Positions 47,432-57,421 of a stretch of DNA of 64,000 nucleotides are shown piece after piece. The position numbers and the translations under genes are program-made. The stretch is taken from positions 116,862-180,861 of IMG/VR virus record IMGVR_UViG_3300008110_000034, one strand, 5' to 3'. The DNA comes from a virus. The notes beneath the pieces were generated by a model that had not been told where the DNA came from, searched no databases, and saw only the letters and a program-made list of their open reading frames with translations. Position 1 is the first letter of the stretch, and every line of letters starts with the position of its first letter.

Positions 47432-48898
47432 ATGACATCATGCAAATTAATTATCAAAGATGAGGTGAATATCAAGTTAGAAGGGTTGCCAATTGAAGCA
47501 AGACGTAAACTGGCAAATACATTTAAGTATGAAGACCCTACTGCAAGATATCGACCTTCATACCGCTTAGGACGTTGGGACGGATCTGTAAGTTTATTTG
47601 GTATTGGCGGATCAGGCTATCTTAATCAATTAGAAAAAATAGTCGAAGTATTATCAAACTTTAATATAGATATTAGCGAGGTTGAGGACGAACGACAGCC
47701 AGCTAATCTAGCATTCACTAAGGTAACAGAAACATACTGGGCCGATCAAGGAAAAGTCTGGCCAAAGGGACACCCAGATGCAGGTAAACCTATTTTATTA
47801 CGTGACTATCAAGTTGATGCTATTAACACATTTTTAGAAAATCCACAAAGTTTACAAGAGATTGCAACTGGTGCTGGCAAAACTATTACTACAGCGACTC
47901 TTAGTCAATTGTGTGAATCACTTGGTCGAACAATTACTATTGTACCTAATAAAAGTCTTGTAGAACAAACAGAAGAAGACTTTGTTAACGTAGGATTAGA
48001 CGTAGGTGTATATTACGGAGATCGAAAAGACTTAGGTAAGACTCATACAATATGCACATGGCAAAGTTTAAACATTTTAGATAAAAAAAGTAAAAATCAA
48101 GAACACGATTTATTAACATTGGCAGAATTTTTAGACGAAGTCAAGACAGTCATTGTAGACGAAGTACACATGGCAAAAGCTGATGTACTTAAAAAATTAT
48201 TAACACAGAACCTAAATAATGCGTGTATACGTTGGGGATTAACGGGGACAGTTCCAAAGGAACAATTTGAAAGTGAACAAATTTTTGCCAGCATAGGTCC
48301 TGTAGTTGGCGGTATCAAAGCACATGAATTACAAGAAAAGGGAGTGTTAAGCAACTGTCAAGTAAACGTTATTCAACTAATTGATCTTCCAGAATTTGGT
48401 AGTTATGCAGACGAAACAAAATACCTAGTTACTGACGAAGATAGAATGCTATACATTAGTAAATTAATCAAGACAATTAGTCTAACTGGTAACACACTAG
48501 TTTTAGTTAATCGTATTGATTCTGGAAAATTTTTAGTAAACGAATTAGAAGATTCTGTTTTTATTTCTGGTGAAGTAAAAACAAAAGATAGAAAAGAAGA
48601 ATATGATGAAATTAAAACAAGTGATAACAAGATTATTGTGGCGACTTACGGTGTGGCCGCTGTGGGTATTAATATCCCTAGGATTTTTAATCTGGTTCTT
48701 TTGGAGCCCGGAAAAAGCTTTGTTAGGGTTATACAAAGTATTGGACGAGGAATTCGGAAAGCAGCAGACAAGGACTTCGTCGAAATATGGGATATCACAA
48801 GCACCTGCAAATACGCAAAGAAACACCTTACAGAGAGAAAAAAGTTTTATAAAGAAGCTAAGTATCCGTTCAAGGTTGAGAAAATAGATTGGAAATAA
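47432..48898 (+). CDS. uvsW: SF2 DNA helicase UvsW-like
   Basis: LRDYQ, ATGAGKT, VDEVH, GLTGT, QSIGRGIR. Confidence 0.92.
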   Translation: MTSCKLIIKDEVNIKLEGLPIEARRKLANTFKYEDPTARYRPSYRLGRWDGSVSLFGIGGSGYLNQLEKIVEVLSNFNIDISEVEDERQPANLAFTKVTETYWADQGKVWPKGHPDAGKPILLRDYQVDAINTFLENPQSLQEIATGAGKTITTATLSQLCESLGRTITIVPNKSLVEQTEEDFVNVGLDVGVYYGDRKDLGKTHTICTWQSLNILDKKSKNQEHDLLTLAEFLDEVKTVIVDEVHMAKADVLKKLLTQNLNNACIRWGLTGTVPKEQFESEQIFASIGPVVGGIKAHELQEKGVLSNCQVNVIQLIDLPEFGSYADETKYLVTDEDRMLYISKLIKTISLTGNTLVLVNRIDSGKFLVNELEDSVFISGEVKTKDRKEEYDEIKTSDNKIIVATYGVAAVGINIPRIFNLVLLEPGKSFVRVIQSIGRGIRKAADKDFVEIWDITSTCKYAKKHLTERKKFYKEAKYPFKVEKIDWK

Positions 48899-48899
48899 A

Positions 48900-49406
48900 A
48901 TGCAAATACTAACAATTAATGATGAAGCTTACGACCTTAACAATCTTCCGGATGAAGTAGATGACAATATGAGATTCGCTGTTTTAGATAACAGTAATCC
49001 CTCAGATCCAGATTTCTTTTTTATACCTTTAATTTTTTTAGAAAGTTTTAATAGTCCAGCAATGGTATTAAAAATTAACAATAAAGAAATTGCTATGCCT
49101 ATAGATTGGTCAATAGTAGTAGGAGATAGTCAAAGCGGATGTGACTTAGAAGTATTACCACTTACTAGTCTTAATGATCGAGGATTTGAGGCATTCTGCT
49201 TCAATCCGTTAAGTAGTTTTAAAATGGATTTTTATAAAATAGAAATTGTAAATTTTTATAATGATGTAAAATGGTATTTTCCTAAGATGAAATCTGGACA
49301 ACTACTAGCTACGCCAATAGATGGTGGTAAGGGACCACAATGTGTCTACTTTGTGAAAGAAATTAGTAGACAAAGTGAATTAATTCAACTTGATAAAATA
49401 TTATGA
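48900..49406 (+). CDS. Hypothetical beta-rich protein, possibly Hint-like fold
   Basis: 168 aa; LKINNKEIAMPIDWSIVV and EIVNFY..VKWY loosely resemble Hint blocks. Confidence 0.5.
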   Translation: MQILTINDEAYDLNNLPDEVDDNMRFAVLDNSNPSDPDFFFIPLIFLESFNSPAMVLKINNKEIAMPIDWSIVVGDSQSGCDLEVLPLTSLNDRGFEAFCFNPLSSFKMDFYKIEIVNFYNDVKWYFPKMKSGQLLATPIDGGKGPQCVYFVKEISRQSELIQLDKIL

Positions 49407-49624
49407 CTAAAATTTATGAAAGTCCAGATGGCGGTAAAACTGTCTATCAAAGAAATTTTGGAAACTTAAAAAGAGATCAAATTAAAAGTGACGGCGAAAT
49501 TGATTTGCAGGACCATATATTATGGAATGAAATTAGATACGCTGCGAAGACCAATCCTACTTTACAAAGAGCCTGTGATCGTGTTAAACTTATGTACAGA
49601 CTTACAGTGGATGATCCAAAATGA
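49403..49624 (+). CDS. Small hypothetical protein
   Basis: 73 aa, ATGA-coupled on both sides. Confidence 0.6.
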   Translation: MTKIYESPDGGKTVYQRNFGNLKRDQIKSDGEIDLQDHILWNEIRYAAKTNPTLQRACDRVKLMYRLTVDDPK

Positions 49625-50097
49625 GTGAAAAAATTGAGTTGAAAGAAAAATTAGCAGCAGTTGATCTTTATGCTACAGATCTTTGGGATAGCTTAACTGA
49701 CGAACAGAAAAAATCTCTTAAGGGCGAGTTTTTTCTTTTGAATAGATATGTTAGTAATGTAAAATCAAATAATCGAAATCATCAAGAACATTTCGTACTA
49801 ACTGTTAATGAATATTTTAATAAGCATTGGAATACCTTACAAAAACATCCTAAACTCTTATGGAGACTGTTATGTATGTGCAGTCTAAAAGACAGTAAAG
49901 TTCATTATCATGAATGGATCGGAAATAAAAAGAAAACTGGAAGTAATAAGAAAATTAAATTTTTAGAAAAACTATATCCTAGTAAAAAACAAGATGAACT
50001 TGAATTATTATCGCAATTAATGTCCGATTCAGATTGCAAAAAACTTGCAGAACAACACGGATACGAAGATTCTGTAATTAAGCAACTGTTTAAATAA
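49621..50097 (+). CDS. Possible clamp-loader small subunit (gp62-like)
   Basis: FFLLNRYVS...HPKLLWRLL...EW pattern and size; replication operon context. Confidence 0.4.
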   Translation: MSEKIELKEKLAAVDLYATDLWDSLTDEQKKSLKGEFFLLNRYVSNVKSNNRNHQEHFVLTVNEYFNKHWNTLQKHPKLLWRLLCMCSLKDSKVHYHEWIGNKKKTGSNKKIKFLEKLYPSKKQDELELLSQLMSDSDCKKLAEQHGYEDSVIKQLFK

Positions 50098-50098
50098 T

Positions 50099-50791
50099 AT
50101 GTTCGAAGAATTAATCAACATGTATACTTGCCAGTATTGTAATCATAAATTTACTAAAGAAAAGACCCTGGCCGTACATGTATGTGAACAAAAGAGACGT
50201 CATCTTGCAGTAGCCGAAAAACATGTACAGATGGGATATTTGACCTTTGTAAGGTTTTATCAAATAACACAAAAAAAATCAGGAAATAAAACATACGACG
50301 AGTTTGCACGTAGTCCCTACTATAATGCGTTTATAAAATTTGGTAGTTTTGTAAGTAATGTAAATCCACTGTACCCTGAAAAATTCATAGACTATGTAAT
50401 AACTAGCGGCGTTAAACTAGATCACTGGTGCAGAGACGAATTATACGAACAATATGTAGTAAATCTTATAAAAACAGAGTCTGTTGAGACTGCTTTGGAA
50501 AGATCTATTAAATACATGACAGCCTGGGCTAACGAAAACAGCTCAGTTTGGAATCATTATTTTAACTACGTGAATATCAATAAGGCTATGTTTGATTTGA
50601 AAGACGGAAAGATTAGCCCCTGGCTAATATTACAATCTAAAAGCGGTAGAGATATGCTGGCAAAATTTAATGATGAGCAACTAACTTATGTCAACGCAAT
50701 TATTAACCCGGAGTTTTGGGTTAATAAATTCAAAAGAAATTCAAGCGATGTTCAATTCGTAAAAACACTTATCGAGGAGTCCCAACTATGA
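50099..50791 (+). CDS. C2H2-like zinc-finger protein of the replication operon
   Basis: YTCQYCNHKFTKEKTLAVHVC N-terminus followed by a helical domain. Confidence 0.6.
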   Translation: MFEELINMYTCQYCNHKFTKEKTLAVHVCEQKRRHLAVAEKHVQMGYLTFVRFYQITQKKSGNKTYDEFARSPYYNAFIKFGSFVSNVNPLYPEKFIDYVITSGVKLDHWCRDELYEQYVVNLIKTESVETALERSIKYMTAWANENSSVWNHYFNYVNINKAMFDLKDGKISPWLILQSKSGRDMLAKFNDEQLTYVNAIINPEFWVNKFKRNSSDVQFVKTLIEESQL

Positions 50792-50970
50792 GCGAAATAG
50801 CAGTTACTAAAACAGTACCATTGAAAGTTGAAGTGTTGTTGTCTGAAGAGGATAACTCGGTCTATGTAAGATTTGAAGGGTTTGAAGATGGAGAAGATGC
50901 TGAAGATTATGCAGCATTTTTAACAGATACTCTCCCATTAATGTTATTTGAGTCTGAAATAATTCACTAA
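50788..50970 (+). CDS. Small acidic hypothetical protein
   Basis: 60 aa; TAATG overlap with the DnaE-like gene. Confidence 0.55.
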   Translation: MSEIAVTKTVPLKVEVLLSEEDNSVYVRFEGFEDGEDAEDYAAFLTDTLPLMLFESEIIH

Positions 50971-51554
50971 TGCCAGATATTGACATTGACTTTGCAGATA
51001 GAGATCTTGCTCTTTCTTATTTTGAACATATTGCATCTTCAATAAAAGAAAAAGATCATACTTTAAAAAAGCATAACACCGGTATATATTGTACTTCTAT
51101 TCCGTACAATCCTGTAACGAGAATATCTACGATTGAGTATAAAGAAGCTGAAGATCGAGGATATTTTAAAATTGATTTTTTAAATGTTGGTATCTATAAA
51201 GATATTAAAAATGAAGAGCATCTTAATAAATTGATGGAAACTGAGCCTGTATGGGAACTCCTAGAACAGGACGATTTTACAGATTTATTGTTTCATGTAA
51301 ACGGTCACGGAGATATTCTAAGAGCAATGAAACCTAGCTCAATAGAACAATTGGCCGCAGTGTTAGCAATCATTAGACCGGCTAAGAGATATCTTATTGG
51401 AAAAGATTGGAATACTGTTATGAGTGAAGTTTGGATAAAACCGTCAACTAACGATTATTATTTTAAAAAGAGTCATGCAATATCTTATGCAATGGCAGTT
51501 GTAGTACATATGAATTTAATCTGTGAAAGCATTTATAATAACCCTCAAGAATAA
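50970..51554 (+). CDS. Miniature DNA polymerase III alpha (DnaE)-like catalytic core
   Basis: PDIDIDF, HNTGIY, GYFKIDFL, MKPSSIEQLAAVLAIIRP, YFKKSHAISYA in DnaE order within 194 aa. Confidence 0.85.
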   Translation: MPDIDIDFADRDLALSYFEHIASSIKEKDHTLKKHNTGIYCTSIPYNPVTRISTIEYKEAEDRGYFKIDFLNVGIYKDIKNEEHLNKLMETEPVWELLEQDDFTDLLFHVNGHGDILRAMKPSSIEQLAAVLAIIRPAKRYLIGKDWNTVMSEVWIKPSTNDYYFKKSHAISYAMAVVVHMNLICESIYNNPQE

Positions 51555-52095
51555 TTCTAATGCCTTAAGACAATTAGATAATTGTCAACGTACTGCAAAG
51601 CAGTGGGCATGGGATGTTGAAGTATTTTGGGCAATCGACGGCAAATTCTTATCGCCTAGTGATTTCCAAAAAGAAAATTTATCATTAAATCCAAATACAA
51701 AAATTTATCGCCGACCAGGTGCCCAAGGATGTTTTATGAGTCATTGGGAATTATGGAAACATTGTGTTAAAATAAATCAACCTATAATAATTTTAGAATC
51801 TGATGCACACATTATAGGAAAACTACCTAGTATTGATTTTTCTGAGGGGTTAGTAAAACTTCACGAAGATAAAGATACAAAATACAGCGATGTAACTGGA
51901 AAATGGAGTAAAGGAGCTCATGCTTACGCACTTACTCCGGATCATGCAAACTTATTAATTTCTGGTACACGGGCTACAGAAGTTAAGCCTGCAGACAAGG
52001 CTATTGGTTCTAACTTTGTTAGCTGGAGATACTTAAATACCCCTATTGTGACACTAAAAAAACTTGGCGCAAGTACGACTTCTAAAGTAAAATAA
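51523..52095 (-). CDS. GT25-like glycosyltransferase
   Basis: AFIITL, FWAIDGK, GCFMSHWELW, IILESDA, GAHAYALTP, PADK. Confidence 0.8.
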
Positions 52096-52467
52096 TTACT
52101 TTTTTCGAACAAGCTGAACACTTTTTCTTTTTATTCTTTTAAATGATAAGTTTAAAAGATTAACTACTGGGCCTAACACCACACGTACATCTTTGCTGTT
52201 AAACGTTTTAATGGCATGTTTAAACGGATCCATTTCTTCTTTTAAAAAGATGTTTATAGGAATCTGTCTATTACTTTCCCACCACCAAATTTCGCCCATT
52301 TCTAAAAAACTAGTTCGCTCCGCAGGGGCGACGATCATCCCCAGATCGTAAAAGCTTGTTACGTACTGATCTTGGTTAATAATGATACCAATATACTCGT
52401 TTTCCCCGTAGTTTAGGACACTAATAAAAGGTAAATTTTTCTCTATGTTTTCTCTTAATTTTACCAT
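52096..52467 (-). CDS. Hypothetical protein
   Basis: 123 aa, WWWESNRQIPINIFL; minus-strand TAAATA at 52495-52500. Confidence 0.65.
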   Translation of the reverse strand: MVKLRENIEKNLPFISVLNYGENEYIGIIINQDQYVTSFYDLGMIVAPAERTSFLEMGEIWWWESNRQIPINIFLKEEMDPFKHAIKTFNSKDVRVVLGPVVNLLNLSFKRIKRKSVQLVRKK

Positions 52468-53293: not shown

Positions 53294-54286
53294 ATGAGTC
53301 TAATTATTGAGACCGTAAAAACACATTTACCGGTAAAGAAAAAATCTACACCTAGTGGTTGGACTAGTTTCAACGCAGTCTGTTGTCACCATAATGGCAA
53401 CAGCGCAGACACACGGCAACGCGGCGGAATCAATGTTGGTGAAGGAGTTAGCTACCATTGTTTTAATTGCGGATTTAAAGCTAGCTGGGTTCCGGGAAGA
53501 ACCCTATCAGTAAAGTTCAAAAAATTTCTTAAATGGTTAAATGCCCCAGACGATCTCATTACCAAATGTGTATTCGAAGCTTTAAGATTAAAAGAACAAG
53601 GTCCAGAGGCAGAAACTAGATCTTTAATTCCTACGTTTTATGATGTAGCACTACCTAAAAATGCTAGACCAATTTCTTCTTATTTAGAAGAAAGCCAAAT
53701 ACCAGATAAGTTAGTAGCTGTAATAGAGTACTTACAGTCAAGACATCTATATCTAGAAGATTACAATTTTCATTGGTGTGATGAATCGGGATTTGACGAA
53801 CGTCTAATAATTCCATATTACCTTCAAGGAAGAATAGTAGGGTGGACTGGCCGCAAAATAAAAGAAGGTAAACCTAAATATCTATCAGAACAACAACCTG
53901 GATTTGTTTTTAATTTAGATCAACAAACAGCCAATAGAAAGTGTGTAATAGTTTTAGAAGGACCAATGGATGCTATTAGTATTGGAGGAGTTGCTATTAC
54001 TGGTAGTGAGGTTAATAAGACACAGAGACTGTTGATTAATCAATTACAAAAACAAGTTATTGTAGTTCCAGATAGAGATACGTCCGGAAAAAAATTAATT
54101 GAACAAGCTGTAGATTTTGGTTGGTCAGTGAGTATGCCAGAGTGGGCCGAAGGTATCAAAGACGTTAACGATGCGATTCGGCATTACGGAAGGATATATA
54201 CACTTTGGAGCATTATTAAATCTACAGAATCAATGCCTCTGAAAATACAATTAAAGTTAAAATCTTGGTTAAGGACTGAACAATGA
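53294..54286 (+). CDS. gp61: DNA primase (T4 gp61-like)
   Basis: Zn ribbon (CC-H...YHCFNCG), RLIIPY, WTGR, KYL, TOPRIM EGPMDA, PDRD, KDVND. Confidence 0.92.
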   Translation: MSLIIETVKTHLPVKKKSTPSGWTSFNAVCCHHNGNSADTRQRGGINVGEGVSYHCFNCGFKASWVPGRTLSVKFKKFLKWLNAPDDLITKCVFEALRLKEQGPEAETRSLIPTFYDVALPKNARPISSYLEESQIPDKLVAVIEYLQSRHLYLEDYNFHWCDESGFDERLIIPYYLQGRIVGWTGRKIKEGKPKYLSEQQPGFVFNLDQQTANRKCVIVLEGPMDAISIGGVAITGSEVNKTQRLLINQLQKQVIVVPDRDTSGKKLIEQAVDFGWSVSMPEWAEGIKDVNDAIRHYGRIYTLWSIIKSTESMPLKIQLKLKSWLRTEQ

Positions 54287-54396: not shown

Positions 54397-54545
54397 TTAA
54401 AAGTCCTTGTACTAGAGTTTGTCGTATTGACTCAAAAACTCAATACTGTGAAGGTTGTAAAAGAACTTTGAAAGAAATCTCGTCGTGGACTCAATATAGC
54501 GATGACAAAAAAAAGTTAATTTTGAAGGAAATAGAAAAAAGATGA
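54393..54545 (+). CDS. DUF1289-like four-cysteine mini-protein (not in the ORF track)
   Basis: MIKSPCTRVCRIDSKTQYCEGCKRTLKEISSW; ATGA-coupled to the carbamoyltransferase. Confidence 0.8.
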   Translation: MIKSPCTRVCRIDSKTQYCEGCKRTLKEISSWTQYSDDKKKLILKEIEKR

Positions 54546-55999
54546 TTACTTGGGGTATCTCTGCAAATAGCCACGACGCTGCATTAGCAGTATTTGATAA
54601 TAATGAATTAAAATTTGCTAGTCATAGCGAAAGATTTAGTCGTGTAAAAAATGATCCGCATCTATGCGATAGACTAGTAATCCATGCTGAAGCAACTTAC
54701 GGCGAGCCTGATCGTATAGTTTGGTATGAAAAACCCCTATCAAAAACAATCAGACAGTTGTATGCAGGGCAAGGATTTAAAAATAATAATATTAAAAAAT
54801 ACTTAAAAAACTATAAAATTGATGCTCCTATAAGATATAAAAAACATCATGAAAGTCATGCTGCTGCTGGGTATTACACTAGTAATTTTGATTCCGCCAC
54901 TGTGTTAGTGATTGATGCAATAGGCGAATGGGAATGTTTGACTGTATGGAAGGGGCAAGGTAAAAATCTTTCAAAAGTTTATAGTCAACAATATCCTCAT
55001 AGTATCGGACTTTGGTATTCAGCTATGACGCAACGATTGGGACTAAAGCCAAACGAAGACGAATATATTTTAATGGGCATGGCTGCATGGGGTAATCCTA
55101 ACAGGTACTTTGATCGAATTAATAATGATTTTTTCTATGTCGATAACTCCGGATGGCCAAGGTTAAAAAGAAATCTTCATCGAGGATGTCTTGATTGGCT
55201 ACCGGACACAAGTATAGATCATTATTTTGATATAGCAGCCGGAGTTCAATCAGTATACGAATATCATCTAAAAAGAATTCTAAAACAAGTTCGGAATATA
55301 GCACCAAATGAAAATATAGTATTCATGGGAGGTTGTGCATTAAATTGTTCAGCCAATCATCTGCTTAAAGACTTTTACAAAAATGTTTGGATTATGCCGA
55401 ATCCGGGCGATGCAGGTAGTGCAATTGGTGCAGTTTTAGCTGATAAGAAAATACATATTGACTGGCCAGGGGCATTCCTTGGGTTTAATATTGAACCAAG
55501 GGCAACTAACGATCAAATAGTAGATTATTTGATTAAAAACAAACTCTGCGGCGTTGCTAGAGGTCGGGCTGAATTTGGTCCTAGAGCGTTAGGTAACAGA
55601 AGTTTAATAGCAGATCCAAGAGACAAACAAACAAAGGAATTAGTCAACGACATTAAACAACGACAGCACTTTAGACCGTTTGCCCCAATGGTGTTGGAAG
55701 AACATGCTGCCGAATATTTTGACATGCCAGTTCAATCTAGTCCATACATGCAATTTACTGCTAAATGTAAATTTCCAGATAAGTTTCCAGCTATTATACA
55801 CAAAGATGGCACTAGTAGAGTTCAAACAGTAGGTTCTGAAGCTCCGTTAGCTAGAGCTTTATTAGAAACTTGGTATAAAAAAACTGGATGTCCTATTTTG
55901 TTAAACACTAGTCTTAATATTAAAGGCGAACCAATAGTAAACGATATAGTAGACGGAATGGATTTTGAAAAGAAATATAAAGTAAAAGTGTTTAATTAA
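54542..55999 (+). CDS. Carbamoyltransferase (NodU/CmcH family)
   Basis: HDAA, HHESHAAAGYY, DAIGE, EYILMGMAAWG, GGCALN, PGDAGSAIG, EFGPRALGNRS, FRPFAP, LNTSLN. Confidence 0.95.
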   Translation: MITWGISANSHDAALAVFDNNELKFASHSERFSRVKNDPHLCDRLVIHAEATYGEPDRIVWYEKPLSKTIRQLYAGQGFKNNNIKKYLKNYKIDAPIRYKKHHESHAAAGYYTSNFDSATVLVIDAIGEWECLTVWKGQGKNLSKVYSQQYPHSIGLWYSAMTQRLGLKPNEDEYILMGMAAWGNPNRYFDRINNDFFYVDNSGWPRLKRNLHRGCLDWLPDTSIDHYFDIAAGVQSVYEYHLKRILKQVRNIAPNENIVFMGGCALNCSANHLLKDFYKNVWIMPNPGDAGSAIGAVLADKKIHIDWPGAFLGFNIEPRATNDQIVDYLIKNKLCGVARGRAEFGPRALGNRSLIADPRDKQTKELVNDIKQRQHFRPFAPMVLEEHAAEYFDMPVQSSPYMQFTAKCKFPDKFPAIIHKDGTSRVQTVGSEAPLARALLETWYKKTGCPILLNTSLNIKGEPIVNDIVDGMDFEKKYKVKVFN

Positions 56000-56011
56000 A
56001 ATATATAAAAT

Positions 56012-57421
56012 ATGACAAGACAAAATTCAGATTACGGTTTTGATGTACAAAGATTGTACATTGAAATGATGTTACAAGATGCAGAAACTTTTGTAAGATG
56101 CCAGGGTATATGGAATCCAGATCTTTTTGATAAGAAACTTCAAACATCTGCAAAGTTTATCAACGACTATGTTGAAGAACATAGAGTCATGCCAACTGTG
56201 AGCATTGTAAATGCTGCTACGTCACAGGTGTTCGGGGAACACGCTAACCTAAAAGCTGAACATTATGATTGGCTAATGAATGATTTTGAAACTTTTGTAA
56301 GACACAAGAGTTTAGAAAAAGCCATACTTGAATCTGCAGACATGTTAGAAAAAGGCGAGTACGGGCCAGTTGAGGACATGATTAAAAAAGCTGTACAGAT
56401 TGGTCTTACTAAAGACATGGGTACTAATTATTTTGCAGACCCTAGGTCTAGATTAATGAAAATTAAAGACAAAAACGGTCAGGTCAGTACAGGATGGAAA
56501 AGTGTTGATGATAAACTGTTTGGAGGTATGAACAGAGGGGAACTAAACATTTTTGCAGCAGCCAGCGGAGGCGGAAAGAGTTTGTTCTTAGCAAACTTAG
56601 GATGCAACTGGGCGTTAGCCGGATTAAATGTGCTATATCTTACATTAGAACTTAGCGAAGAACTAGTTTCTATGCGTATTGATTCTATGTTGACTGATGT
56701 TCCAACGAGAGAAATTTTTAAACAAATTGACGATGTTGAAATGAAAGTCAAAGTCATAGGTAAAAAGTCCGGTGCGTTACAAGTCAAATATATTCCTTCA
56801 GGAAAAAATGTCAACGACATACGGTCTTATGTTAAAGAATTTGAAATTAAAACTGACAAGAAACTAGATGTAGTTTTAGTAGATTATCTCGATTTGTTAA
56901 TGCCAATCAGTAAAAGAATTAGTGCAGAAAATCTTTTTATCAAAGACAAATATGTTTCTGAGGAACTAAGGAACTTTGCTGTAGAAAGAAATATAGTATT
57001 AGTAACTGCCGCACAGTTGAATCGTGGCGCAGTTGAAGAAGTAGAGTTTGATCACAGTCATATTTCAGGCGGACTGAGTAAGATTCAAACAGCGGATAAT
57101 GTATTCGGTATTTTTACTAGTCGTGCTATGCGTGAGCGTGGTCGATACCAAATACAACTAATGAAGACTCGTAGCAGTAGTGGTGTAGGACAAAAAATAG
57201 ACTTAGAGTTTGATGTTAATTGTCTAAGAATTAGAGATTTAGATGATGTCGAAGAATCTCAATCAACGTCTACTGGTCGCAGTATTATTGATCAAATTAA
57301 AAATAGAACCAGTACATTAACTGATGATCCTCAGTCCGGTGCGCCTATTCCTAGACCTAAAGCAACAACTGACAGCACCAAGGTTAGGCAATTATTGAAT
57401 AATCTAAATACTGAATTATGA
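56012..57421 (+). CDS. gp41: Replicative DnaB-like helicase (T4 gp41-like)
   Basis: AASGGGKS, TLELSEE, VDYLDL, TAAQLNRG, QLMKTR. Confidence 0.95.
   Translation: MTRQNSDYGFDVQRLYIEMMLQDAETFVRCQGIWNPDLFDKKLQTSAKFINDYVEEHRVMPTVSIVNAATSQVFGEHANLKAEHYDWLMNDFETFVRHKSLEKAILESADMLEKGEYGPVEDMIKKAVQIGLTKDMGTNYFADPRSRLMKIKDKNGQVSTGWKSVDDKLFGGMNRGELNIFAAASGGGKSLFLANLGCNWALAGLNVLYLTLELSEELVSMRIDSMLTDVPTREIFKQIDDVEMKVKVIGKKSGALQVKYIPSGKNVNDIRSYVKEFEIKTDKKLDVVLVDYLDLLMPISKRISAENLFIKDKYVSEELRNFAVERNIVLVTAAQLNRGAVEEVEFDHSHISGGLSKIQTADNVFGIFTSRAMRERGRYQIQLMKTRSSSGVGQKIDLEFDVNCLRIRDLDDVEESQSTSTGRSIIDQIKNRTSTLTDDPQSGAPIPRPKATTDSTKVRQLLNNLNTEL

Follow-up and report, generated by a model that had tools for sequence, protein, structure and literature searches.

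A split and miniaturized DNA polymerase III alpha subunit has been described computationally in the jumbo phages of group 2.2 (Iyer, Anantharaman, Krishnan, Burroughs and Aravind, 2021, Viruses 13:63, PMC7824862), where a family B polymerase (PolB) was reported in all phages and the mini-Pol III accompanies it. Examples are RaK2 (ORF124 and ORF162), Paride (Paride_0017 and 0087) and Phosso (gene 437), and the Atu_ph07 paper likewise lists a "DNA polymerase III alpha subunit." The locus examined here agrees with these in having an NTP-binding N-terminal half (N-half) and a Mg2+- and template-binding C-terminal half (C-half) of the same sizes and with the same split point, which are encoded by distant genes with the same flanking genes, together with a PolB and a T4-type replisome. 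The mini-Pol III system is thus not new, since it was published in 2021 and is annotated in GenBank and in PHROGs (11778 and 11127), and we found no biochemical or experimental work on the split enzyme in the literature.

The bacterial Pol III alpha subunits (DnaE of Escherichia coli and Taq, DnaE1 of Mycobacterium tuberculosis, and PolC) are the only significant structural neighbors of the mini-Pol III models. They share with it a palm that carries a GS loop, a DxD motif and a third aspartate, followed by the RP and K-S-H motifs in the same order. However, the bacterial enzyme has 1160 residues in a single chain and the mini-Pol III 360 residues in two, the parts absent from the latter being the PHP domain, the thumb, about 88 residues that separate the RP motif from the KSH motif in DnaE, and all that lies beyond about residue 785. 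In the cyanobacteria, Pol III alpha is also produced from two distant genes, but there each half of DnaE has its full size and intein trans-splicing links the two covalently. Separate polypeptides likewise make up the family B DNA polymerase of another set of jumbo phages, the chimalliviruses of group 1, although this enzyme has an unrelated fold and belongs to a different phage group; the paper that describes it does not mention Pol III (bioRxiv 2026, PMC13648687).

Here, we consider an open reading frame (ORF) in an uncultivated phage, located in a 64-kb stretch of DNA, hereafter the window, which represents the last part of a 180,861-bp IMG/VR record. The record was estimated by CheckV to be 51% complete, which suggests a jumbo phage genome of about 350 kb. 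We conclude that the ORF at 50970-51554 very probably encodes the C-terminal subunit of a minimal DNA polymerase III alpha made up of two subunits, as found in group 2.2 (Rak2/PA5oct/Atu_ph07-like) jumbo phages.

The 194-Residue Protein and Its Missing Parts

The C-half gene (50970..51554, + strand) encodes a protein of 194 aa with the Mg2+-binding palm strands and reduced fingers. Its ATG, the earliest possible start in the frame, overlaps the stop codon of an upstream 60-aa ORF (TAATG), so that the protein begins with MPDIDIDF. The first residues, M1-P2-D3-I4-D5, correspond to M399-P400-D401-F402-D403 in E. coli DnaE, K67-I68-D69 to K553-F554-D555, and F165-K-K167-S168-H169 to F756-N-K758-S759-H760, D3, D5 and D69 being the catalytic residues. 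The block KPSSIEQLAAVLAIIRPA corresponds to QPDCFEDMIALVALFRPG in E. coli DnaE, the latter ending at residue 641, with R136-P137 placed on R639-P640. H35NTGIY is in register with H511AGGVV, a match that is based on this register and on the conservation of H35 and G38, as no aligner returned the block. The earlier note on this DNA had read these five motifs and all three catalytic aspartates from an ORF that starts at the catalytic motif, and all of them are present and in order; their E. coli equivalents, which were said to span more than 350 residues, extend over 365 (D401 to A765).

In an alignment of 88 diverse members of the C-half family, down to 30% identity (alignment A1), D3, D5, K67, D69 and P137 are invariant, and D7, H35, G38, R136, K139, K166 and H169 are conserved in at least 90% of the sequences. 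H169 aligns with H760 of E. coli DnaE, the proposed steric gate (PMC8485763), and is conserved in the family.

The C-half matches phrog_11778, annotated as "DNA polymerase," with an E-value of 2.2e-64 over residues 3-187 (profile positions 8-194 of 197), and its sole Pfam match is to the finger domain PF17657, with a score of 16.1 bits that falls below the cut-off of 22. Searched as a single sequence against the sequences in the PDB, it gave weak matches, in the right order, to DnaE only, and a profile of the 88 sequences recovered Pol III alpha chains only (E about 2e-5), in three stretches that again follow the same order. With hhalign, the family profile aligned to E. coli DnaE over the central block only (residues 46-139 with 535-642).

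A structure predicted with AlphaFold2 from alignment A1 had a mean pLDDT of 96.0 and a pTM of 0.88. When this model was compared with VIA-align to 48,161 PDB representatives, the top seven matches were all C-family polymerases, with Z-scores from 9.6 to 6.1 (PolC 9.6, M. tuberculosis DnaE1 9.3, Taq 9.0, E. coli 7.6), and the next match had a Z-score of 4.1. In Foldseek, the top 17 matches were all Pol III alpha. The phrog_11778 match (E 2e-64) and the restriction of the structural matches to the C-family show that the likeness to these polymerases is not due to chance. Since 186-192 of the 194 residues are aligned to C-family structures in VIA-align, covering residues 401-781 of the E. coli protein, about 190 residues of the C-half stand in for about 380 of DnaE.

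The alignments also reveal where the protein has been shortened. Residues 21-34 of the C-half, 14 residues in all, take the place of residues 421-510 of E. coli DnaE, in which the thumb reportedly occupies residues 433-510 (Lamers et al., 2006), and from this spacing we infer that the C-half probably has no thumb. From the RP motif to the KSH motif, about 88 residues of DnaE have no counterpart, and past the KSH helix the protein continues for only about 25 residues, to a point equivalent to about residue 785 of the 1160 in E. coli. With nothing beyond this point, the remainder of the fingers is absent, as are the beta-clamp-binding, OB and tau-binding parts, which agrees with the statement in the earlier note that the ORF lacks the thumb, clamp-binding and OB domains. 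The PHP domain (PF02811) had no match in the ORFs of either half or in the whole 180,861-bp record, which holds about 51% of the genome. Nor did DnaQ/RNase_T (PF00929) in the same record; an epsilon-like exonuclease is annotated in Atu_ph07 and RsoM2USA.

A Partner Elsewhere in the Record

The earlier note had suggested a search of the rest of the genome for a DnaE N-terminal fragment with a GxGRGS motif. Such a fragment was found outside the window, at G000:C1:8505-9005 (L002:1258-1758), where a protein of 166 aa ends at the split point. It contains the only match to the Pfam family DNA_pol3_alpha (PF07733) in the whole record (C1:8748-9005), which scores 48.5 bits where the cut-off is 23.9, and it matches phrog_11127 with an E-value of 1e-39. 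This N-half contains the GVGRGS triphosphate-binding loop and aligns to residues 321-392 of E. coli DnaE and 386-454 of Taq. Its C-terminus reads ...GVGRGSSVASYVLYLIGVHKIDSIKYKLDWKEFLR, the last residues being ...KEFLR, and it stops five to six residues short of the DxD strand with which the C-half begins.

The N-half gene is located about 159 kb upstream of the C-half gene in the record, in a different operon. Wide separation is also seen in the relatives, in which the two genes are 34 kb (RaK2), 44 kb (PA5oct) and 182 kb (Atu_ph07) apart. The N-half family is as extensive as that of its partner, comprising at least about 8000 clusters when grouped at 90% identity, with lengths of 163-171 aa. 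The phages that have a C-half also have an N-half, and the numbers of C-half and N-half genes are nearly identical in each genus: 34/34 in Escherichia, 11/11 in Pseudomonas, 10/11 in Klebsiella, 8/8 in Salmonella and 8/8 in Erwinia.

Further evidence for the pairing comes from a natural fusion. A predicted protein of 375 aa, P0340, encoded at L007:1066-2193 on a 2.4-kb metagenomic contig (ENA ERZ28653423), is 38% identical to the N-half over residues 27-180, including GVGRGSS, and continues after a 10-residue linker with DFDID...MKIDLL...IIRPGK...YKKTHS. It is the sole fused form among the best 150 of the 420 representative clusters, and when IMG/VR was scanned with it, no relatives were returned. 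The closest relatives of its C-half part are split forms, and the fusion may therefore be secondary. The proposal of the earlier note that the C-half belongs to a minimal Pol III in two pieces, of which the other carries the GRGS motif and is separately encoded, is thus borne out by the N-half in the record, by the co-occurrence of the halves and by this fusion.

Because P0340 is a single chain, it served as a stand-in for the two halves of the phage, to which it is only 35-38% identical. An alignment with many N-half and C-half rows was misaligned by MAFFT and was discarded; only three to four C-half rows were tolerated, and the model, built on an alignment (A3) with three such rows, is therefore shallow-aligned over the C-half. 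The best model had a pLDDT of 80.5 and a pTM of 0.77, with residues 80-375 mostly above 80, and the other four models had about 61. In VIA-align its top seven matches were all C-family polymerases, led by M. tuberculosis DnaE1 (Z 20.6, 291 residues, 3.2 A) and followed by Taq (18.3), PolC (17.2) and E. coli (15.2), and the next match, at Z 4.3, is where the generic Pol-beta-fold nucleotidyltransferases begin. In Foldseek the top 18 matches were all C-family polymerases, with E-values down to 5e-8. The best model predicts that the halves together rebuild one DnaE-like core of palm plus fingers. Only the two chains taken together provide a Pol-beta-like palm with three carboxylates and a GS loop.

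Two longer homologs were the sole returns of a search for longer forms of the C-half. The metagenomic P0121 (350 aa) and P0122 (391 aa) each carry an unrelated N-terminus, with TolB-type Pfam domains in one of them, in front of the final ~115 residues of a C-half, and each is found on a single contig of about 2 kb. We rejected both as N-half and C-half fusions, as their N-termini are unrelated and their contigs short and single, and they are probably chimeras of assembly or gene calling.

Gene Neighborhoods

The C-half gene is the last conserved gene in a tightly packed, co-directional string that is headed by a UvsW-type SF2 helicase (47432..48898, + strand; Pfam ResIII/DEAD/Helicase_C, phrog_16), which occupies the same position in RaK2 (uvsW) and Paride. 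Between them, five small overlapping or abutting ORFs (48900..50970, + strand) encode a phrog_11279 protein of 168 aa, a protein of 73 aa, a phrog_11758 protein of 158 aa, a phrog_11058 protein of 230 aa and an acidic protein of 60 aa. The order is the same in the metagenomic contigs L008 and L009, and comparable ORFs are present in RaK2, Paride and Phosso. These conserved small neighbors are candidates for accessory factors.

The phrog_11058 protein (50099-50791, + strand) has a C2H2-like zinc-finger N-terminus (CQYCNHKF...HVCEQK). Here, as in L008 and L009, its gene is located just upstream of the C-half gene, with at most one short ORF between them, and Paride and RaK2 have ORFs of comparable length at this position. 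Apart from a weak C2H2 lead, a search of the ESM Atlas with this protein returned only viral clusters of "hypothetical protein." The protein is a candidate for a DNA-binding factor that assists the thumbless polymerase. The 60-aa ORF that follows (50788-50970, + strand; …EDGEDAEDYAAF…) is very acidic and is coupled to the translation of the C-half by the TAATG overlap. It has no match to any family; L008 and Phosso have a similar small ORF, of 59 and 71 aa, respectively, in front of the C-half gene, whereas L009 and Paride have none.

The slot immediately after the C-half gene is variable. In the window, it contains a lineage-specific insertion of a gene for a GT25-like glycosyltransferase (51523..52095, + strand; PF01755, 47.7 bits). 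A GT25-like gene is also found there in L009 (3075-3647) and a Methyltransf_24 gene in L008 (3582-4076), and the slot is empty in RaK2, Paride and Phosso. It seems to be a hotspot at which accessory genes are placed within the replication module. Then follows a small conserved antisense gene (52096..52467, - strand; phrog_11637), which comes after the C-half gene in all relatives examined, a gene for a virion-like protein and a gene for a gp61/DnaG-type primase with a Toprim domain (53294..54286, + strand), which is syntenic with the relatives. A gene for a NodU/CmcH-type carbamoyltransferase (54542-55999, + strand; PF02543 and PF16861) separates the primase gene from that of a gp41/DnaB-type replicative helicase (56012..57421, + strand; PF03796, 74 bits), the latter being syntenic in RaK2 and Paride. 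In L008 and L009 the carbamoyltransferase is preceded by a DUF1289 mini-protein; it is absent from this position in RaK2 and Paride. The GT25-like gene just downstream of the C-half and the carbamoyltransferase gene between primase and helicase set this locus apart from the cultured group 2.2 copies, while the gene order from UvsW to the primase and helicase is common to RaK2, Paride, Phosso and the metagenomic L008 and L009.

The N-half gene lies 1.7 kb from a gene for a gp44-type clamp loader (C1:10733-11680), and in RaK2 and Paride it is likewise found two or three small genes upstream of this gene. In view of the synteny around the C-half and the position of the N-half beside the clamp loader, both halves are embedded in replication modules. 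A Cpn10/GroES-like co-chaperonin is also encoded near the N-half (G000:C1:9350-9685; L002:2103-2441), the RaK2 equivalent of which is annotated as "head morphogenesis," and a dCMP/cytidine deaminase is encoded just after the clamp loader (G000:C1:12104-12583; L013:2731-3210).

Proposed Assembly and Role

We propose that the N-half and the C-half associate to complete a single Pol-beta-like nucleotidyltransferase sheet, and that neither half would be active on its own. The split in the cyanobacterial DnaE differs from the one seen here, where there is no intein, the break is located inside the palm, and the two sequences run from ...KEFLR to MPDIDIDF. As there is no extra sequence at the end of the N-half or at the start of the C-half, and hence no room for intein halves, the association would be non-covalent. 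The resulting heterodimer would be thumbless and PHP-less and would have no proofreading, clamp-binding or OB domains; it may use dNTPs to extend a primer on a template in a distributive manner. The C-half gene sits between the UvsW helicase and the primase and helicase in this scheme, and the N-half gene just upstream of the clamp loader. Since a gp43-like PolB, a clamp loader, a primase and helicases are also encoded, the most likely role is not that of the main replicase but that of an accessory polymerase at T4-type forks, where it would serve in short primer extension, in recombination-dependent synthesis or in repair. It may also be a specialized primer or repair polymerase, the other reading offered in the earlier note.

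A more far-reaching version, which we put forward as a tentative possibility only, is that the halves form a functional DNA polymerase that has no thumb and comprises about 360 residues, which would make it the smallest C-family enzyme known, inside a replisome of the T4/archaeo-eukaryotic type with its PCNA-like clamp, RFC-like loader and family B polymerase. Such an enzyme could be an intermediary between primase and PolB, and neighbors such as the phrog_11058 protein might supply the means of holding on to the DNA. In Bacillus subtilis, DnaE takes over from primase before the hand-off to PolC.

An alternative, which we consider improbable, is that the heterodimer is an active nucleotidyltransferase of the Pol-beta fold without being a templated DNA polymerase. 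It could then work as a terminal transferase or as an enzyme that needs no primer or adds RNA, or it could produce a nucleotide signal or modification. The absence of the thumb and of all C-terminal domains that hold the duplex is in line with such a function, and the structural neighbors that follow the C-family in the P0340 comparison are small nucleotidyltransferases, namely ANT(2''), MenT and CCA-adding enzymes with Z-scores of 3-4. Many nucleotide-based conflict systems are also known from jumbo phages (PMC7824862). However, the likeness of the P0340 model is specific to the C-family and includes the finger subdomain (Z 20.6 versus 4.3), and both genes are located in replication modules. 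Furthermore, DnaE positions the dNTP and the template by means of the RP motif of the fingers and the helix with the K-S-H steric gate, and both of these are conserved.

The idea that the mini-Pol III is the main replicase in place of a T4-type gp43 is far less probable. It could be entertained as long as only the window was considered, which contains no gp43 and has the C-half gene among helicase and primase genes. However, a search of the rest of the record identified a complete gp43-like family B polymerase of 889 aa (G000:C1:32110-34779), with a PF00136 match of 129.7 bits, a PF03104 exonuclease domain and a match to phrog_262 with an E-value of 8e-202. The mini-enzyme itself has neither a thumb nor proofreading or clamp-binding parts, and a PolB is present in all group 2.2 phages (PMC7824862). 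The mini-enzyme thus accompanies the usual replicase and does not replace it, and the "radically reduced replicase" in the title of the earlier note is not supported. Its statement that GRGS, PHP and gp43 are not in the window stands, in that the sole PF07733 and the sole PF00136 matches of the record are outside it and that PF02811 has none.

It is equally hard to maintain that the 194-aa protein acts by itself or that its partner is some protein different from the N-half of 166 aa. The C-half is predicted to fold confidently by itself and the two genes are 159 kb apart in different operons, as might be expected of an independent protein, but the GS loop for the incoming triphosphate is found in the N-half only and the halves co-occur genus for genus. 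Moreover, the natural fusion joins them at the junction equivalent to that in DnaE, and the structural Z-score to DnaE doubles once the N-half is added.

Relatives, Abundance and Selection

A tblastn search of phage genomes with the C-half gave matches in 96 records, all of which are jumbo-phage genomes or partial records of them, and in 95 of these the match covered at least 80% of the query. Some are already labeled "DnaE-like DNA polymerase III alpha" in GenBank. The identity to the copies in cultured phages is 33-54% overall, with about 54% for Atu_ph07 and Phosso, 47% for PA5oct-like phages and 35-38% for RaK2 and 121Q-like phages, and XacN1 and SCTP-2 were also matched. A megablast search of phage genomes with 12 kb around the C-half gene gave no match, indicating that there is no close cultured relative. 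Metagenomic relatives of the C-half are 70-83% identical, and the lineage is uncultivated and very abundant. Among public proteins there are at least 8000 C-half clusters at 90% identity, almost all of 191-193 aa, and 420 clusters at 50% identity, almost all of 185-215 aa or fragments. The motif D-[IV]-D-[IL]-D was found within the first ~20 residues of every full-length representative checked, apart from one that is N-terminally truncated and one that is partial.

When the C-half gene was compared with those of two relatives, the three pairwise dN/dS values were 0.10, 0.14 and 0.35, and in two of these comparisons dS had reached saturation. These values indicate purifying selection, and together with the constant length of both halves across at least about 8000 clusters they argue that the C-half is not a decaying fragment. 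The earlier note had named dN/dS across relatives as a check and had envisaged that these might have a full-length dnaE and that this copy might be under relaxed selection; the relatives are also split and mini-sized. That the C-half covers just part of DnaE and is barely recognized by Pfam might suggest the decaying remnant of a dnaE, from phage or host, that used to be complete, but this reading is almost certainly wrong and is already refuted by the conservation data, given the thousands of clusters of near-constant length, the DxDxD at the very N-terminus across the family, the invariant catalytic residues, the dN/dS values, the pLDDT of 96 and a synteny that is conserved from phages of the Alpha- to those of the Gammaproteobacteria.

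The divergence from the closest relative (L009:2525-3106, 83% identity) is uneven along the C-half, with residues ~9-30 differing strongly and an identical C-terminal end. The dN/dS value of 0.35 comes from this pair and is above that of 0.10 for the more distant L008. The uneven divergence could reflect mosaic recombination within the gene.

Implications

Our additions to the published description of the system are small. They consist of the location of the partner and of PolB in the same record, a residue-level map of the deletions, the conservation of the steric-gate histidine, evidence for purifying selection, the synteny of both halves, a very large metagenomic abundance and one fused form with a DnaE-like model. 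Given their small size, their confidently predicted folds and what seems likely to be easy expression, the proteins lend themselves to direct tests of activity at the bench.

If the two halves rebuild an active enzyme, it would define how little the catalytic core of these bacterial replicative polymerases needs to contain, namely a palm and reduced fingers without a thumb, PHP or clamp-binding parts. It would also mean that a natural polymerase core of the bacterial type works alongside a replisome of the archaeo-eukaryotic type, a combination that served Iyer et al. (2021; PMC7824862) as their model of the ancestral replicases.
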